Positions 1,249-17,366 are shown, numbered from the stretch's first letter. The stretch: DNA of 19,343 bases from Promethearchaeia archaeon (GCA_029856125.1 JAHQWJ010000123.1:1-19343), one strand, 5' to 3'. Notes: generated from the letters alone by a model not told the origin. Made by a program: numbers and translations.

Positions 1249-1950
1249 TTAGTGAGTTTTATTTGTAATTAATAAATCGAAAATGTCTTTTTTAATTTCA
1301 TACTTGTTTTTTAAGTCTGTTTGATCTAAAATATTTCGTATTTCTTCAGGCGTATATCCTGCCATAATCGATGTTTTCCAATAATAACTTATCTCTTTAG
1401 ATATCATTAATTTTGCAATATTAAATATTACCTTAGCACCTAATCCAATATCTCTACGACCGTCACCAACACAAAAGATTCCATTCGGTTTTATTACTCT
1501 AGCTATTTCGTTGAAAACACGTATTGGATTATCCCAGTGGTGTAAGCTATCGTGAGTTATTATAACATCAAATGAATTATCTTTTAATTGAAACATATTA
1601 GTAGCATCTCCGTGTAAAAACACGATACGATCTTTAACACCTTCTTCTTCTACGTTTTTATTTGCTACCCTAATCATATCTTCCGATATTTCCAATCCTG
1701 TTATTTTTAATGTAGGGTTTTCCTGAGCCATGATAATAGTTATCCACCCAGGTCCAGGTCCAATTTCAAGAACTTGAGAATTGTCCTTTACAAATAATTC
1801 GTATAGAATAAACTTCACAAAATTGCGATATTCTTTCATCCTTTTTTTAAATTCTTCGTTTAATTCTTCCATACTGAGCTCAGGCATATCTGTAATTGCT
1901 TCTCCTTCAGGAACTCTTGGAGGAATCTTTTTGCTTTTTGATTTACTCAA
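1249..1950 (-). CDS. Class I SAM-dependent methyltransferase (Methyltransf_11/UbiE-like)
   Basis: Motif I VLEIGPGPG, ITGLEISEDMI, GDA, FDVIITHDSLHHW, RVIKPNG. Start is probably TTG at 1950, since the track's GTG at 1962 lies within an RBS-like AGTGAT. Confidence 0.9.
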   Translation of the reverse strand: MSKSKSKKIPPRVPEGEAITDMPELSMEELNEEFKKRMKEYRNFVKFILYELFVKDNSQVLEIGPGPGWITIIMAQENPTLKITGLEISEDMIRVANKNVEEEGVKDRIVFLHGDATNMFQLKDNSFDVIITHDSLHHWDNPIRVFNEIARVIKPNGIFCVGDGRRDIGLGAKVIFNIAKLMISKEISYYWKTSIMAGYTPEEIRNILDQTDLKNKYEIKKDIFDLLITNKTH

Positions 1951-2014
1951 TTTTCTTATCACTTTTTTTTGTTATAGTACTAATAAAATCTGATTCATAT
2001 TTAAAGCTCAGTTT

Positions 2015-5422: not shown

Positions 5423-6769
5423 TTAAATATTTTCTGTGATGTTATCAATTGCAAAATCAGCCGATTCACAGACATAATCACACTCGTCGTGAATTAGGTT
5501 TTTTAAAGCAGTAATTATTTCTGGATTATTTACTCTAATTTTTCCTAGAGCCTCAGAAGCTCTCCATCTAACATCGGGTTTTTTATCTTCTAATGCTTTT
5601 AATAGAGATGGAACGGCTTTCTCTGCAATAGATCCAATCTTACCTAATGAAAGGGCAGCTTCTCTTCTTACAATATACTTCCCATCGTTTAAAGCCTCTT
5701 CTAAAGCTTTGAGCACTTCTTCTGAATCTTTGCCAATTGCACCTAAATTTCGAGCGGCCACTACTCGAATTGATTTTTTATTAACTGCTAATAAGCTAAT
5801 CAGATATGGGATGGCTTCATTAGCTTCTAAGCCTATTCCACCTATTGCTGAAATTATAACAACTTTCATTTTAGTATTAGCAACTTTAGCCACATTAATT
5901 AGAGCAGGAACAGCTTCTTTACCTAAACTTCTTAAAGAATTAGCTGCTTTTCCTCTTACTTCTTCTTTTGGATCTTTTAACATTAAACTTAAATTATCAA
6001 TAATATTTGGAGTTTTTAATCCCAACTCTCCAAGAGCTTCAACCGCTTCTTTTCTAACAAGTCTATTTGAATGATTTAAAATATTTAAAAGGTATGGAGC
6101 AGAAGCTTCACCGATCTGTTTAAATGTATTAACAATATGATATCTAACTCTCCAATCTTTGTCATCAAGCGCGTTAATCAAGGTAGGAATTGCTTTAACT
6201 GAATCTTTTCCTATAGAGCTCATTGCTCGAGCTGAAGATGTTCTTACTGCCCAACTTGGATCGCTAATGCTCTTCATTAAATCAGGTATAAGTTTGTATG
6301 CCTCTGGCCCTATCAAACCTAGTGAGTTTGCAGCTTCGATCCGTACTTTTTCAAACTTATCGCTTAACGCCATTTTTAGAGCGTTTAAAGACTCATTTGT
6401 AGCGATTCCAATTTTGCCCAGTGAGGTAACAACAGCAAGTCGAATCGAATCTTCATCGTCATCACAACATTTAGTTAATTGAGGAATTGTAGTTAAAGAT
6501 ATTTTTCCAATTTTTCCCAGTGATCTAACGGCTTCTCGACGAATACTCCAATCGTCATCGTCTAAATATTCAGATATTTTTTTAACAGCATTTTCGCCCG
6601 ATTTTTCTGCTATTTCTCCTAAAACAAATAATGAATTGAAACGAATAGAACGAATTTCACTATCAATATTTTTTATTACTTCTTCAATGACAGAAGAATC
6701 TTTTTCGATTCTTGCTAAAACTAAATCAATTCTAGCATCCCTTAATAATTGTTCTAATGAAGCTGACAT
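5423..6769 (-). CDS. HEAT-repeat (PBS-lyase-like) alpha-solenoid protein
   Basis: About 13 repeats of 31-33 aa of the form L.D....VR..AA.ALG.IG; RBS GGTGAT upstream. Confidence 0.92.
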   Translation of the reverse strand: MSASLEQLLRDARIDLVLARIEKDSSVIEEVIKNIDSEIRSIRFNSLFVLGEIAEKSGENAVKKISEYLDDDDWSIRREAVRSLGKIGKISLTTIPQLTKCCDDDEDSIRLAVVTSLGKIGIATNESLNALKMALSDKFEKVRIEAANSLGLIGPEAYKLIPDLMKSISDPSWAVRTSSARAMSSIGKDSVKAIPTLINALDDKDWRVRYHIVNTFKQIGEASAPYLLNILNHSNRLVRKEAVEALGELGLKTPNIIDNLSLMLKDPKEEVRGKAANSLRSLGKEAVPALINVAKVANTKMKVVIISAIGGIGLEANEAIPYLISLLAVNKKSIRVVAARNLGAIGKDSEEVLKALEEALNDGKYIVRREAALSLGKIGSIAEKAVPSLLKALEDKKPDVRWRASEALGKIRVNNPEIITALKNLIHDECDYVCESADFAIDNITENI

Positions 6770-12105: not shown

Positions 12106-12549
12106 TTACTTAAAATAGTGAGCAAAAGTTTTGTGTTCTTTTCCGTATTTTTTCATGATTACTCTCTTGAACATTCCAAAATCGAGTCGTTCTCTCATGT
12201 TATCAGCTCATCAATCGGCGTGGACTATAAGAGTTATGTCGCTGTTCGAATAAAGATTGAAGTTAACATCGTCCAGAAGAGGCATAAACTCTTTGTTCGG
12301 TCCATAGGCATTACATGCACAATCTTCGTAAATCGCATTCTTTTGTGGGTTCCAGATTAATTGGAGATAGCTCTTAATCAGTCCTTTATACATTGGAAAC
12401 GGTGAAAGCTTGGGATTGTTAAGGAGCTGTCTATCTATCGTAGCCAACGCTTCAATTATCGTTCCTTCTTCCTCAATAGATACTTCGTACTCAATTCCGT
12501 TTGCGAGCTCTTTTTCAGGTCCAAAAATTGTTAGTTTAATTTTTTTAAT
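12106..12549 (-). CDS. Candidate ubiquitin-like (MoaD/ThiS/SAMP beta-grasp) selenoprotein with tandem UGA-UGA, 147 aa if both are read through
   Basis: AGGTGA RBS then ATT at 12549. (M)KKIKLTIFGPEKELANGIEYEVSIEEEGTIIEALATID...EDCAC...NFNLYSNSDITLIVHAD-TGA-TGA-ADNMRERLDFGMFKRVIMKKYGKEHKTFAHYFK-TAA. TGAs at 12211-12213 and 12208-12210. The coding region 12211..12549 is well supported; readthrough is inferred. Confidence 0.7.
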
Positions 12550-12594: not shown

Positions 12595-13044
12595 TTATAA
12601 TAACCCTTTTTCCTTTAGAAGTCCGGGTAAATCTTTCTTTAATGCGAATGAAGTAATAAATTTCTTTGTACCATCAACGACAACGCAATTGCCATTTAAA
12701 TTAAGTTTACGAGCATCGTCAGAATCTAAGTCTTTTGTTTCAAACCTTATGTGTTTCATATAAGGGCTAAGTGCCGAAAATACAAGGTTCATAAATTGAG
12801 ACCAAACGCATTCGCAAGCGTTCAGAGGAACATATACATCTACGGATAGTTTATTCGTTTCTATATTTGCTGTCTCTTTCAAATTAATTTCGTGAGTATT
12901 AGGCGATTCTTTTGAAGTTGAGCCCTGACAACAAGAATCTGATGAACCACAACAAGAATTTGACGTACCACAGCTTGATTCCTCTAAGTTTATTTGACTA
13001 TTTTGGTTTTCGCTAACCGATATTTTTATTTCTTCTTTTTCCAT
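12595..13044 (-). CDS. Cys-rich protein with a thioredoxin-like/ArsD-like C-terminal domain, putative metalloid chaperone
   Basis: SSCGTSNSCCGSSDSCCQG low-complexity arm, then VDVYVPLNACEC-helix-strand...CVVVDG-helix; located in the acr3 operon. Confidence 0.6.
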   Translation of the reverse strand: MEKEEIKISVSENQNSQINLEESSCGTSNSCCGSSDSCCQGSTSKESPNTHEINLKETANIETNKLSVDVYVPLNACECVWSQFMNLVFSALSPYMKHIRFETKDLDSDDARKLNLNGNCVVVDGTKKFITSFALKKDLPGLLKEKGLL

Positions 13045-13104: not shown

Positions 13105-13467
13105 TTAACCGCAGCAATTTGAAGTTGTTTCACTTTCATCTTCTGGACCACAAGCACAGCTATTTATGTCTTGATTTCCAGATTTGGCATTTTTTGCTTT
13201 TGCTCTCGCGTTCCATAAACAACCGCACCCTTTCTTTTCCATCATAATGATCGCTTCAACGGGACAATTCCTCTTACAAGCACTACACTCAGTACATAGT
13301 TCAGGATTTTTAATTTCGTATTTCCCAGAATCTGTTTGTTGTGGAAGCCCAAAGGGACACACTTCTGCACATAAACCGCATTTATTGCATAAATTTTCAT
13401 TTATAAATATTTTAAAATCTTTTATAGATAATTTGTCTAAACGAGCTTTAAATTCTGCTTCAGTCAT
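13105..13467 (-). CDS. HgcB-like 2[4Fe-4S] ferredoxin with a Cys-rich tail
   Basis: CNKCGLCAEVCP and CTECSACKRNCP, then GCGCLW, SCACG and terminal NCCG; directly follows the hgcA-like gene; GAGGT RBS. Confidence 0.85.
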   Translation of the reverse strand: MTEAEFKARLDKLSIKDFKIFINENLCNKCGLCAEVCPFGLPQQTDSGKYEIKNPELCTECSACKRNCPVEAIIMMEKKGCGCLWNARAKAKNAKSGNQDINSCACGPEDESETTSNCCG

Positions 13468-13520: not shown

Positions 13521-15188
13521 TTAGAAAAAAATGATTCCAATTACTAATGAAATCAAACTTATAGTTAATAAAACTTTATTTAAAATCTTAAAACGGGGGT
13601 ACTCTTCTTGTATTTCACTAGGACTAGTAGCCATCGTATATCCACTTAACGACATGGTTGAAAAAAATGAAACCCAAAGGAAAAAACTTAAGTTAAAAAG
13701 CGTGAAAATTATCGATTTGTGAAATAAAAAAGAGATTATTCCTAAAATAAAAATATTCAAAGTTCCAAAGAAGATTCCCTTAAGAATAAATCGACGAGTG
13801 AAATTTGCTAGTGGATATGTAAAAGTTATGATAAAATTTGCCGTAACTATCCAGAGTAATAATTCGCCAACCCACCATAATTTAGCGAATAAATTAAGAG
13901 AGTTAAGTATAAGGAATACAAGGAATAAACCTATAAGTGGTAACAAGAAAATCTTTCTTAATAAAAATGTTGTATGCGTGATAAAACCACGAAACCGATG
14001 TTTTAGGGTGAATTTCGCAAGTTTCATTCTATCGGGTTTTCGAGCAGGCCTTTTTTCAAGGAACTCGGGTAAATCTTTAGACCAAACAGGTCCATAAACA
14101 ACTCGAAAAGGAAAATCTTTAGATTTTTTCTGCAATTCTGGAGTAGCTACTCCTCCTGCAGATAATTGTGGGAGAATTAAAGTTTTTTTATTCGTTAAAC
14201 TTTCAATACCAGTAGCTTCAACTGCCTCTACTAGTTGGTTATTTCCAAAATCATTTCCTCTCGCAGCACACCACACATTAATACCGTTAGAGTCAACACA
14301 TAATACCCATGCATCAATACCCTTAAGATCTCTCATTACTTTAATGTAAGTGAATTCATAGTTAGCAGTCACTATTATAGGAGAGGATTCAGTAGGATTT
14401 CCAGATTTGTAAATACCGGGATCTATTGGAACGAGATCAATTTGTCCTGTATAAATGCAGCGATATATTCTTAACTGCGATTTTATTCCTTTGAATCGTT
14501 TTGGTCTAGGTTGATAATATCCTGGCTCAGTGATTCCTTCATCGTCGTTCTTTATGAGTTCGAGAGCTTGAATTGTTCCGTGTTTCCAGTCTTTATTACC
14601 TTTGATTTTGAATCCAATTGGTTCAATATAGGTGAAGAACCATTTTAATAGAAAAGTACTCCGTAATTTTAGACGCCTAAGTTTCTTTTTATATCTCCAT
14701 CTTTTTATTTTAAAGATCATTTTCCAAAAACCACTTGGAACAAATTCTGCAGCAATTATTAACTTACCACTTGGTTTTAATACTTTCCAAACATTTCTAA
14801 GGAAGATTTGTTGTTCAAAAGGTCGAAGTTCTGAAAGCATAAACGTGCTAATTACTAAATCTTGAGAATTAGCTTCCACAGGCATGTTGGAAAATGATCC
14901 AGTTTGATATAAGAGCGTTCCTTCCTTCAAATCTGAAGGATAATTCTGCATTGCATGATTAATCATCTGAAAATTTATATCTATCGCCGTAACATTATTT
15001 CCTTTTAACGCCATTTGAGAGGCGAGGCTTCCAGTCCCACATCCAACTTCTAAGATCGATTTAGAGGTACCAATTTTATCAAGTACCCATTCTCTAACGC
15101 TTAAATTTACACCTTTAGTAAGTGCTGTGAATTTAGAATCATAACTATCGGGCTCTTGTTCGAGTTTACGCATGTATACTACGGCCAT
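13521..15188 (-). CDS. Fusion of a class I SAM methyltransferase, an HgcA-like (CdhD-family) corrinoid-binding domain and a C-terminal transmembrane domain
   Basis: N-term ILEVGCGTG, VTAIDIN, VLKPSGKLII. Middle PGIYKSGNP..SPIIVTANY, AWVLCVDSNGINVWCAARG, LILPQLSAGGV, FRVVYGPV. About 5 TM helices with MSLSGYTMATSPSEIQEE. ATG at 15188 preferred over TTG at 15197. Confidence 0.88.
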   Translation of the reverse strand: MAVVYMRKLEQEPDSYDSKFTALTKGVNLSVREWVLDKIGTSKSILEVGCGTGSLASQMALKGNNVTAIDINFQMINHAMQNYPSDLKEGTLLYQTGSFSNMPVEANSQDLVISTFMLSELRPFEQQIFLRNVWKVLKPSGKLIIAAEFVPSGFWKMIFKIKRWRYKKKLRRLKLRSTFLLKWFFTYIEPIGFKIKGNKDWKHGTIQALELIKNDDEGITEPGYYQPRPKRFKGIKSQLRIYRCIYTGQIDLVPIDPGIYKSGNPTESSPIIVTANYEFTYIKVMRDLKGIDAWVLCVDSNGINVWCAARGNDFGNNQLVEAVEATGIESLTNKKTLILPQLSAGGVATPELQKKSKDFPFRVVYGPVWSKDLPEFLEKRPARKPDRMKLAKFTLKHRFRGFITHTTFLLRKIFLLPLIGLFLVFLILNSLNLFAKLWWVGELLLWIVTANFIITFTYPLANFTRRFILKGIFFGTLNIFILGIISFLFHKSIIFTLFNLSFFLWVSFFSTMSLSGYTMATSPSEIQEEYPRFKILNKVLLTISLISLVIGIIFF

Positions 15189-15225
15189 TAATATCAATCC
15201 TATTTAGTTTTTTAATACTTTTTTA

Positions 15226-16344
15226 TTACTTTGAATTAGATTTCCAAAACCCTCGTTTCCCAAGGAATTTTCCAAGATATACCATTGCAAGCATAACAGG
15301 CACTTCCCAAAATAAGCCCATTGTAGTTCCTAAAGCCGCTACGGACCCAACACCATACATTGCGACAGCTGTTGCGATAGCAATTTCAAAGTGACTTGAT
15401 GAGCCGATAATTATGGTAATAATCGCTTCTTTATACTTCATTTTGAAGATCTTAGTAATAAAAACATTGTAAACAACCACTATTACAAAACCTACTAAGA
15501 GTGGAATTGAGATTAGTAGCAACAAATCAGGATTATTTATAAGAACATCGCCGTTTAGGGAAAATAAAACCACTAAAGTTGTCAATAAAGCAACAATTGA
15601 AATTTTTCCTACAAATGGTTTATAGCTATCATTAAACCACGATAATCCTTTCGAAGTGATGATTAATCTCTTACTTACTATCCCTAAAAATAACGGAATC
15701 CCAATGAAGAATATTAAAGAGATTAACAGCAACCATGGATCAACTATAATCCCAGGCGTGAGAATATTTTGAATACCTGTTAATAAAGAAACCATTCCTA
15801 CGTACAAAAAGATTATTGTAATCGTATTTAAGCTTGTATTTACTACATTTTGCTCCTGATTACCCTTCGCCATCCACCCCCAAACTAACACCATAGCCGT
15901 ACAAGGCGAGCTTGATAGTAAAATTATCGCAACTTTTAGTTGTTGTATAGATTCAGTTGTACCCGGTAGAAATATATTAATCATTGCCAAACCTACAAAA
16001 GGAGCTATGAGCCAATTAGAAATTAGTGTTAAGATTATAGGTTTTGGATTTTTACGTAGTTTTTTCAATTCTGATGCTTGTAGATTTAACATCGCAGGGT
16101 ACATCATTAAAAATAAACAAATTCCAATTGGTATAGAAATACCTCCAATTTGCAAAGAATTTATTGCTTGACTTATCTCAGGTATAAACTGGGAGAGCGC
16201 GATACCTATGATGATACAGAGTACCACCCATATAGGGAGAAGCTTTTCGAAGTAGTTAATCTTTCTTGATTTTTGTTTTGCTTCTTCTGAATTATTGCTG
16301 TTGTCTAATATCTTATTTTCAATATTTTCTTCAACCATAATCAT
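15226..16344 (-). CDS. acr3: ACR3-family arsenite efflux transporter
   Basis: LFLMMYP, NWLIAPF, PCTAMVLVW, SSHFEIAIATA, EVPVML; about 10 TM. Start is ATG 16344 or 16338. Confidence 0.95.
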   Translation of the reverse strand: MIMVEENIENKILDNSNNSEEAKQKSRKINYFEKLLPIWVVLCIIIGIALSQFIPEISQAINSLQIGGISIPIGICLFLMMYPAMLNLQASELKKLRKNPKPIILTLISNWLIAPFVGLAMINIFLPGTTESIQQLKVAIILLSSSPCTAMVLVWGWMAKGNQEQNVVNTSLNTITIIFLYVGMVSLLTGIQNILTPGIIVDPWLLLISLIFFIGIPLFLGIVSKRLIITSKGLSWFNDSYKPFVGKISIVALLTTLVVLFSLNGDVLINNPDLLLLISIPLLVGFVIVVVYNVFITKIFKMKYKEAIITIIIGSSSHFEIAIATAVAMYGVGSVAALGTTMGLFWEVPVMLAMVYLGKFLGKRGFWKSNSK

Positions 16345-16396
16345 CAATTAATTTTTGAATTTTCTTTTCTAACTCTATATTCATTTTTAATTTTGG

Positions 16397-16429
16397 TTAT
16401 AAAGTTCATGTTCTTTATACATGAAACTT
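16397..16429. promoter_or_regulatory. acr3 TATA box overlapped by an inverted repeat, candidate ArsR operator
   Basis: TTCATGT-N7-ACATGAA at 16405-16425, extendable to 16402-16429 with one bulge; minus-strand TTTATAA at 16397-16403. Confidence 0.55.
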
Positions 16430-16525: not shown

Positions 16526-16954
16526 ATGTATACAAGAGATATTTTTGAAAATTGGCACGATATGAAGCAAAAAAGAGCTCAAGAAATTAAGAAGATGTTG
16601 TGTACCTGTAAAGATTGCTCAGATTCAAATCCTGATTTCGATAACTTACTAAAATTGGGTAAAATTTTAGAAGAGAATAGGAATTTAGATGCCATTGAAA
16701 GATTTACATCTGCGATTGCATCAAAAGAGCGACTAATTATTATTACTGCTTTAAAAGAACGGGATATGTGCGTTTGTGAGTTAGAAACTATATTGAATAA
16801 ATCACAATCAACAATTTCTCACCATTTAAGAAAGTTAGCTGCTGCGGGGTTAATTCAAGGATATAAAAAGCAGAAATTCACCTTCTACCACCTATTTAAA
16901 GAAGAATTGAAGCAGAACTTAACAACGTTTAATCAAAATTTAGCTGTAGAATGA
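16526..16954 (+). CDS. arsR: ArsR/SmtB-family metalloregulator
   Basis: RLIIITAL..RDMCVCELETILNKSQSTISHHLRKL...GLI (alpha3 CVC site plus HTH); divergent from acr3. Confidence 0.92.
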   Translation: MYTRDIFENWHDMKQKRAQEIKKMLCTCKDCSDSNPDFDNLLKLGKILEENRNLDAIERFTSAIASKERLIIITALKERDMCVCELETILNKSQSTISHHLRKLAAAGLIQGYKKQKFTFYHLFKEELKQNLTTFNQNLAVE

Positions 16955-17117: not shown

Positions 17118-17366
17118 ATGGCTCCACTACCGGTTCCAGACAACGAAGAATCAATGGCAGTATGTCGTAGATTCTGTGGTCCTTGTCCTTCTTTCAAACC
17201 AAATAAACTCAACGAGTATGAACCGCATGCACTCTTTTGTGCACGAGGAAAATCTCAAAAACCAATGTCTGAAATTGAAAACAAAGGTTGTAGTTGTTTT
17301 GGATGTGATTTGTTCCCAAAGTATCAATTAGAGAAAGGATATTTCTGTATGCCTGATAAAATTTAG
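17118..17366 (+). CDS. Small Cys-rich protein, DUF2769-like
   Basis: C..CPSF...LFCARGKS...GCSCFGC...YQLEKGYFC; GAGG RBS upstream and a T-tract after the stop. Confidence 0.75.
   Translation: MAPLPVPDNEESMAVCRRFCGPCPSFKPNKLNEYEPHALFCARGKSQKPMSEIENKGCSCFGCDLFPKYQLEKGYFCMPDKI

Follow-up and report, generated by a model that had tools for sequence, protein, structure and literature searches.

The stretch of DNA analysed here, 19,343 nucleotides from a Promethearchaeia archaeon (GCA_029856125.1, JAHQWJ010000123.1:1-19343) and referred to below as the window, carries in this order a divergent arsR gene, acr3, a gene in which a CpaM-like methyltransferase is fused to an HgcA-like protein, an HgcB-like ferredoxin gene, a thioredoxin-like gene and a small gene containing two consecutive TGA codons. 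The first three minus-strand genes of this unit are separated by gaps of less than 60 nt. The features of the locus are as follows.

17118..17366, plus strand: DUF2769 Cys-rich small protein, directly after arsR; present in several related loci only
16526..16954, plus strand: ArsR/SmtB regulator, divergent, with a CVCEL site and an N-terminal Cys cluster
15226..16347, minus strand: Acr3 arsenite/antimonite efflux permease, directly upstream of the fusion (TIGR00832, 274.5 bits, cut-off 282.8)
13521..15188, minus strand: CpaM::HgcA-like fusion (P0001), 555 aa, ATG at 15188, stop at 13521
14562..15182, minus strand: CpaM-like class I SAM methyltransferase domain, residues 3-209 (NF043040, 139 bits, and conservation)
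14457..14459, minus strand: Cys244, second conserved cysteine, in the helix preceding the corrinoid domain
14049..14474, minus strand: CdhE/HgcA-type corrinoid-binding domain, residues ~239-380 (PF03599, NF003195 and CFeSP 2h9a alignment)
14256..14279, minus strand: cap helix NVWCAARG, with the Cys307 codon at 14268-14270 (translation and homolog alignment)
13527..14006, minus strand: HgcA-type membrane domain, five predicted helices (AlphaFold2 model and hydropathy)
13105..13467, minus strand: HgcB-like 2[4Fe-4S] ferredoxin (NF040864, 46.7 bits, cut-off 99)
12595..13044, minus strand: small Cys-rich protein that looks thioredoxin-like, with its CxC motif conserved
12106..12549, minus strand: probable double-selenocysteine small protein, ubiquitin/MoaD-like (fold by eye), with ATT start, TGA-TGA at 12213-12208 and TAA
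12051..12086, minus strand: eukaryote-like SECIS hairpin (AUGA...GA), 19 nt past the true stop, conserved and showing compensatory stem changes

The fusion gene contains no internal stop codon, and a TTG at 15197, upstream of its ATG, offers an alternative start that would add three residues. The sequence-only reading had described a single ORF made of methyltransferase, corrinoid and HgcA-type transmembrane domains, and this was borne out by Pfam (Methyltransf_11/25 at residues 45-145, CdhD at residues 239-344), by NCBIfam and by five hydropathy-predicted transmembrane segments between residues 406 and 555. Its suggestion that the N-terminus resembles CpaM likewise agrees with the NCBIfam search, in which CpaM (NF043040) was by far the best methyltransferase model, matching residues 3-209 over nearly the full model length with 139 bits, below the cut-off of 180, the runner-up model reaching 54 bits. 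The remainder of the protein matched HgcA (NF040863, residues 255-550, 177 bits, cut-off 275) and HgcAB_like (NF043039, 182 bits, cut-off 285), all three scores lying below their cut-offs. Elsewhere in the window, a stand-alone class I methyltransferase (1249-1962, minus strand) scored 65 bits against the CpaM model.

Out of the four cysteines of the fusion (residues 50, 244, 297 and 307), the methyltransferase domain holds one, Cys50, which lies inside the glycine-rich SAM motif. The single cysteine pointed out from the sequence was thereby confirmed: the domain has no As-binding cysteines and scores 34.9 bits against ArsM (NF008823, cut-off 263), and an identity as ArsM is rejected on both grounds. 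The cap helix reads NVWCAARG with its Cys ligand retained, as had been reported, and this cysteine (Cys307) is invariant in 61 of 61 homologs. Cys244 is kept in 52 of the same 61, and the canonical HgcA consensus has no equivalent conserved cysteine. Invariant positions of the methyltransferase domain comprise M6, L9, E10 and P13 of the N-terminal helix, the glycine SAM motif and E120, and a basic/aromatic helix at about residues 155-172 is conserved as well. An AlphaFold2 model built with the 61 sequences reached pLDDT 91 and pTM 0.88, on which latter value the architecture can be regarded as confidently modelled. Its top PDB fold match is 9A0B, a computed HgcA model, and it superimposes on an independently predicted Chloroflexota fusion with TM 0.74 over 520 residues.

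An assembly artefact, or a fusion unique to this contig, had been named beforehand as an outcome that would speak against the fusion; both are ruled out by at least 120 full-length homologs (identity 64-100%), several of them 99-100% identical and located on other contigs, and by the presence of the fusion in 53 of 68 genomes of the host family, three of these as contig-end fragments, within a 301-genome sample of the phylum. By name the homologs belong to Lokiarchaeia and further Asgard groups, and four additional families of that sample contain more distant fusions. Bacterial versions were found in Anaerolineae and Abyssubacteria. The same architecture is represented in two Atlas clusters of 67 and 110 proteins, mostly of Chloroflexota, one of which supplied the TM 0.74 match. 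The loci nearest to the window are 89-91% identical and syntenic and mark the host as an Asgard archaeon of the Lokiarchaeia type. One locus filed under a Nanopelagicaceae bacterium (DATKTW010000069.1) is 89% identical to and syntenic with those of Lokiarchaeia and is probably mis-binned. No plasmid copy was found. The host genome encodes one CdhE (contig C25), and no canonical hgcA was found in it.

Trees of the corrinoid and transmembrane part united canonical HgcA in a single clade (support 98-99) without the query, which falls into a Lokiarchaeia clade (support 100) inside a larger Asgard group sharing the NVWCAARG cap. The variant cap helix recognised in the sequence-only reading is therefore real, although not as a one-off change of HgcA: by the trees it is the signature of a non-canonical branch. 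Of the 54 columns with at least 90% conservation in canonical HgcA, the fusion matches 35; it carries the cap-helix Cys307 and a C-terminal bundle of about five transmembrane helices, but not one of the six cap-helix variants ending in GK that form the high-stringency HgcA motif (PMC10087281), and neither its NF040863 score, its clade placement nor the motif and score of the adjacent hgcB-like gene are those of HgcA. Canonical HgcA identity is rejected by score (177 against 275 bits), motif and tree. As for CpaM, the in-frame fusion itself provides the genetic association with an HgcA-like corrinoid protein, while the score remains under 180 bits; a deeper relative of the fusion bears the NCBI name CpaM. 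Membership in the HgcAB-like family is not supported either, with 182 bits against 285 and a ferredoxin encoded by a separate gene in place of a C-terminal fusion.

All 44 of the 44 non-canonical loci had CpaM, either fused or directly upstream, and none of the 51 loci of canonical hgcA did, each of the latter with at least 900 nt of upstream sequence, a comparison to be read in the knowledge that the CpaM profile was built from many of the same sequences and that the search query included the domain. Ten of the 44 loci were detected through the corrinoid/TM part alone, and all ten carry cpaM; split CpaM copies scored independently by NCBIfam gave 241-250 bits. The gene had been proposed to be a Rosetta-stone fusion. 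It can serve as such for the CpaM/HgcA-like branch, whose association NCBIfam already records, but not for true HgcA, because none of the 51 canonical loci has CpaM and because SAM methylated purified canonical HgcAB with no methyltransferase supplied (PMC11588087). Around the query four architectures were met: the methyltransferase-corrinoid fusion with a separate ferredoxin (query), CpaM with a corrinoid-ferredoxin fusion (the NCBIfam pair), a triple fusion, and all parts separate. The triple fusions of methyltransferase, corrinoid-TM and ferredoxin parts (L056-L063, L098) belong to two other Asgard families and to metagenome proteins. Fused and split forms are scattered over the tree. By the tree, fusion or splitting probably took place more than once. 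A derivation of canonical HgcA from CpaM-linked lineages by loss of CpaM, hinted at by a tree with one outgroup, was not upheld with eight CdhE outgroups, where the base was unresolved and the best tree kept every CpaM-linked row on the same side (support 69).

Among known families, the pair of CpaM (NF043040) and HgcAB-like protein (NF043039) has the same three modules and the same gene order as the fusion unit. In contrast to that pair, the methyltransferase is fused here and the ferredoxin separate, both scores lie below cut-off, the fusion forms a supported clade of its own with the NVWCAARG cap, and its ferredoxin keeps a Cys-rich C-terminal tail. Lokiarchaeia genomes carry, in addition, a split cpaM and hgcAB-like paralog pair that scores above both cut-offs. 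With canonical HgcA/HgcB (NF040863/NF040864; P. mercurii ND132; PMC11588087) the unit shares the corrinoid domain with cap-helix Cys, the five transmembrane helices, a downstream ferredoxin with extra cysteines, SAM as the likely donor and frequent ArsR/ars neighbours; it differs in the added methyltransferase domain and in a cap that continues with RG(N) instead of GK. ArsM (NF008823) shares the class I SAM fold and the place beside acr3 under ArsR, whereas the fusion scores about 35 bits against the ArsM cut-off of 263, with one cysteine in the domain and without As-binding cysteines. CdhE has a homologous corrinoid-binding domain, but no cap Cys, transmembrane domain or SAM domain. NCBIfam thus already contains the fused parts and their association, and the linkage of hgcAB to ars genes is on record in the literature; "fused HgcAB" was described by Podar 2015 (PMC4646819) and an Asgard clade by Lin 2023 (PMC10083202). 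A literature search found no paper on the fused, ars-embedded Asgard clade, though a prior description may exist.

In Lokiarchaeia the fusion mostly has arsenic genes in its neighbourhood. Among 49 loci, acr3 was found in the same gene run in 28, arsM only in one, arsR only in 10, a MarR-type regulator in five and none of these in five; acr3, arsM or arsR accordingly lies near the fusion in 39 of 49 loci, compared with 0 of 9 for the paralogous cpaM and hgcAB-like pair, the Lokiarchaeia loci being related, so that the counts are not independent. The partners vary: in one genome (G210) arsM (347 bits, above cut-off) lies between acr3 and the fusion, in another (G129) arsM accompanies the fusion without acr3, and in three (G135, G141 and G121) arsC-like genes follow downstream. 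Two closed genomes (4,324,194 and 6,035,313 bp) contain the minimal unit arsR-acr3-fusion-ferredoxin with an ArsR that has one N-terminal Cys only, and the smaller of them also carries the non-ars paralog. In several genera acr3 lies away from the fusion and has the thioredoxin-like and Sec genes beside it. In one subclade (L039, L043, L045, L191, L196, L197) ArsR is replaced upstream by a regulator of the MarR type that carries cysteines near each terminus. Lokiarchaeia ars operons also contained ArsC-like proteins of the thioredoxin-dependent kind (L031:4258-4473, L032, L187, L188:4511-4927; a fragment scored 78 bits); an earlier study (PMC10060404) had reported its Asgard genomes to be without arsC.

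Outside Lokiarchaeia the ars linkage mostly fades. An arsR neighbour is present in 2 of 6 loci of one family (f9), in 0 of 7 of another (f24), where arsM lies about 6 kb off in one, and in 1 of 5 loci from metagenome assemblies. Canonical hgcA loci had arsR in 18 of 51 and acr3 in 6 of 51, in line with their previously published ars linkage (PMC7438021). The fusion does not replace ArsM, as the two show no mutual exclusion (arsM in 17 of 53 fusion genomes and in 6 of 15 others of the family, p=0.56); no arsM above cut-off was found in the host genome.

The remaining genes of the unit were analysed as well. The acr3 of the window is a single-copy gene and the only acr3 found in the host genome. 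The ferredoxin gene begins 53 nt past the fusion stop and is found behind the fusion in nearly every locus for which downstream sequence is available; its product contains a GCGC motif (equivalent to HgcB Cys73) and C-terminal vicinal cysteines, and has CTECSAC in place of C(M/I)ECGA as its second cluster motif. The Cys-rich protein at 12595-13044, which matched no Pfam or NCBIfam model, is a candidate metalloid chaperone or reductant, and its gene stays with acr3 even where the fusion lies elsewhere. The same holds for the Sec-Sec gene, and the case for both as dedicated partners of the fusion is weakened. A palindrome at 16405-16425 was rejected as an ArsR operator since it is not conserved in relatives. 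Six loci (L002, L005, L010, L012, L084, L191) have, upstream of acr3 or of the fusion, a DUF166 protein that weakly matches the selenoprotein family DfsP; it is absent from the window. Further away (5423-6769, minus strand), flanked by an ABC transporter cluster and an acyl-CoA ligase, the window encodes a 448-aa protein with what appear by eye to be HEAT/PBS-lyase repeats.

The small gene downstream probably encodes a tandem-selenocysteine protein, as judged from its reading frame and conservation. Behind the TGA-TGA (12213-12208) follow 33 more conserved sense codons, the frame and extension being kept in 21 loci, and of the 88 matches in the phylum sample, 87 have two to three TGA codons and none has TAA or TAG. 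The gene occurs in 65 of 301 Asgard genomes, all of the window's own class, with one subgroup reading Cys-Sec-Sec; a second copy lies at G000 C112:44042-44467. Conserved in-frame UGA, a continued frame and an eSECIS-like 3' element are the marks of Asgard selenoproteins under the model in PMC11227280, and all three are present here, while the protein matches none of the five main Asgard families (of seven in all) named in that paper and is also unlike two further selenoprotein families named in a review. Rfam returned no SECIS model match for the region. The SECIS-type pattern has six sites in the host genome, three of them behind VhuD/MvhD-type selenoprotein genes, compared with 0, 0 and 2 in shuffled genomes. 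Two further SECIS-like hairpins (G000 C8 near 48132 and C148 near 27155, both minus strand) have no recognised selenoprotein upstream and are in the chance range. The Sec gene is part of the ars operon and is connected with the fusion only through co-transcription.

Taken from its context, the substrate of the fusion is probably arsenic or a similar toxic metalloid, which the protein would methylate. Our preferred reading, held tentatively and judged close to evenly balanced, is that of a self-loading, membrane-bound cobamide methyltransferase in the As (or Sb) stress response of Lokiarchaeia. Upon binding of As(III)/Sb(III), ArsR would let go of the acr3-fusion-ferredoxin transcript, and the 2[4Fe-4S] ferredoxin would reduce the cobamide to Co(I). 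We infer that the fusion binds its cofactors; the fused CpaM domain would bind SAM and pass its methyl group to Co(I), with Cys307 as the lower ligand as in HgcA. It is quite likely that the domain presents SAM to Co(I) in this manner and so loads the cobamide. Reduction to Co(I) by ferredoxin, methylation by SAM and a thiolate-ligated methyl-Co(III) would be carried over from canonical HgcAB, where SAM methylates Co(I) to Cys-ligated methyl-Co(III) and serves turnover (PMC11588087). The methyl group would then pass to a thiol-bound trivalent metalloid held on the extra cysteines of the ferredoxin, possibly also on Cys244, and the product would leave the cell; Cys244 and the cysteines of the ferredoxin tail are candidate metalloid-binding sites. 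As(III)/Sb(III) as the acceptor is suggested more weakly than the methyl loading, and As(III) is a chemically feasible one, because arsenite can be methylated by methylcobalamin and also, in a side activity, by MtaA (reviews PMC6950371, PMC13262295). For the split CpaM and HgcAB-like pair, complex prediction gave a score of 0.33 against 0.00 for the best control, with at least 71% of contacts common between runs and partner pLDDT of at least 82, which lends weak support to mutual binding; the mark applied to such predictions was reached by 58 of 80 solved and 2 of 110 mismatched pairs, among which 7 of the 80 solved pairs and both mismatches lay at 0.60 or below.

The preferred reading draws on the invariance of Cys307, the pairing with CpaM in 44 of 44 against 0 of 51 loci, the varied ars partners and the count of 0 of 9 at the paralog, and the ars operon context strengthens the earlier proposal of a non-Hg substrate, which we consider plausible. 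Against it counts that canonical hgcA is also ars-linked, yet has Hg as its proven substrate, and that no methylarsenic was detectable in the model methylator ND132 (bioRxiv 2022.10.17.512643). The fading of the ars link beyond Lokiarchaeia, the lack of ArsM replacement and the separation of acr3 from the fusion in several genera count in the same direction.

The same chemistry might serve an organic membrane substrate (lipid, quinone or xenobiotic), with the ars site explained by hitch-hiking under a stress regulator. The closest folds of the methyltransferase domain include the membrane-surface PmtA (8YS9, TM 0.75 by target) and Coq5/UbiE, its basic/aromatic helix is conserved, ars neighbours are missing from most members outside Loki, and a MarR-type regulator precedes five of the Loki loci. 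P. furiosus PF0729, which we take to be a fused hgcAB, is moreover among listed copper-induced genes. A class I methyltransferase, however, would need no Cys-ligated cobamide for methylating an ordinary nucleophile, the partner ferredoxin retains the extra cysteines of HgcB, and the ars link is maintained although its partner genes change; we consider an organic acceptor unlikely. A divergent methylase of Hg or another soft metal (Bi, Pb, Cd), HgcAB-like with a loading domain of its own, would account for the retained Co-ligating Cys, five-helix membrane domain and separate ferredoxin with Cys73 equivalent and terminal Cys pair; canonical hgcAB, too, is ars-linked. The ArsR of the window has, besides CVCEL, an N-terminal Cys cluster like that of CadC-type regulators, which are sensors of Cd/Pb/Bi. 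Yet the high-stringency motifs of both HgcA and HgcB (PMC10087281) are missing, and the match to only 35 of 54 conserved columns and the position outside the HgcA clade count against this substrate. Tested organisms with related fused HgcAB formed no methylmercury, and the ArsR of the two closed genomes has a single N-terminal Cys, so that we rate methylation of Hg or its like as rather improbable.

In another arrangement CpaM and the ferredoxin would form a reactivation module, rescuing Co(II) by reduction and SAM, and turnover would run in reverse, for instance from methylated arsenicals to Co(I). This is the design of MetH, in which reactivation relies on a SAM-binding domain plus an electron donor beside the cobamide; the fusion co-occurs with ArsM, twice directly adjacent, as would fit action on the ArsM product, and the host CdhE is a possible methyl sink. 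We nevertheless hold it to be a poor prospect, given that canonical HgcAB spends SAM on turnover (PMC11588087), that the host genome has no arsM above cut-off and that no conserved methyl-accepting partner gene lies nearby. An incidental fusion, in which the methyltransferase acts on a substrate of its own and leaves the cobamide alone, could be argued from the methylation of canonical HgcA by SAM without such a domain and from the weak complex prediction for the split pair; with both parts together in 44 of 44 loci, and fused and split forms spread over the tree, it appears very improbable.

Why microbes retain hgcAB is a long-standing question, and an arsenic link has so far been suggested only by loosely neighbouring genes and a single study of a regulator. 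The branch described here, sister to HgcA, lies in a compact arsR-acr3 unit across Lokiarchaeia, with a non-ars paralog in one closed genome as an internal control, and owing to this combination the native function of HgcA-like proteins becomes testable. The fusion is indicative of a domain dedicated to SAM loading and absent from canonical HgcA, which is useful for structural work on the transfer from SAM to cobalt. Abundant sediment genes of the fusion type could pass moderate-stringency hgcA searches and are not to be counted as Hg methylators without a test. A broader proposal, which seems to us possible if doubtful, is that Lokiarchaeia possess a second, ArsM-independent and cobamide-dependent route to methylated As/Sb, carried out by the fusion together with its Cys-rich ferredoxin and possibly a tandem-selenocysteine carrier, and that metalloid methylation is the native job of the CpaM branch. 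If this were true, Hg methylation by HgcAB would be a related or side activity within the HgcA superfamily.
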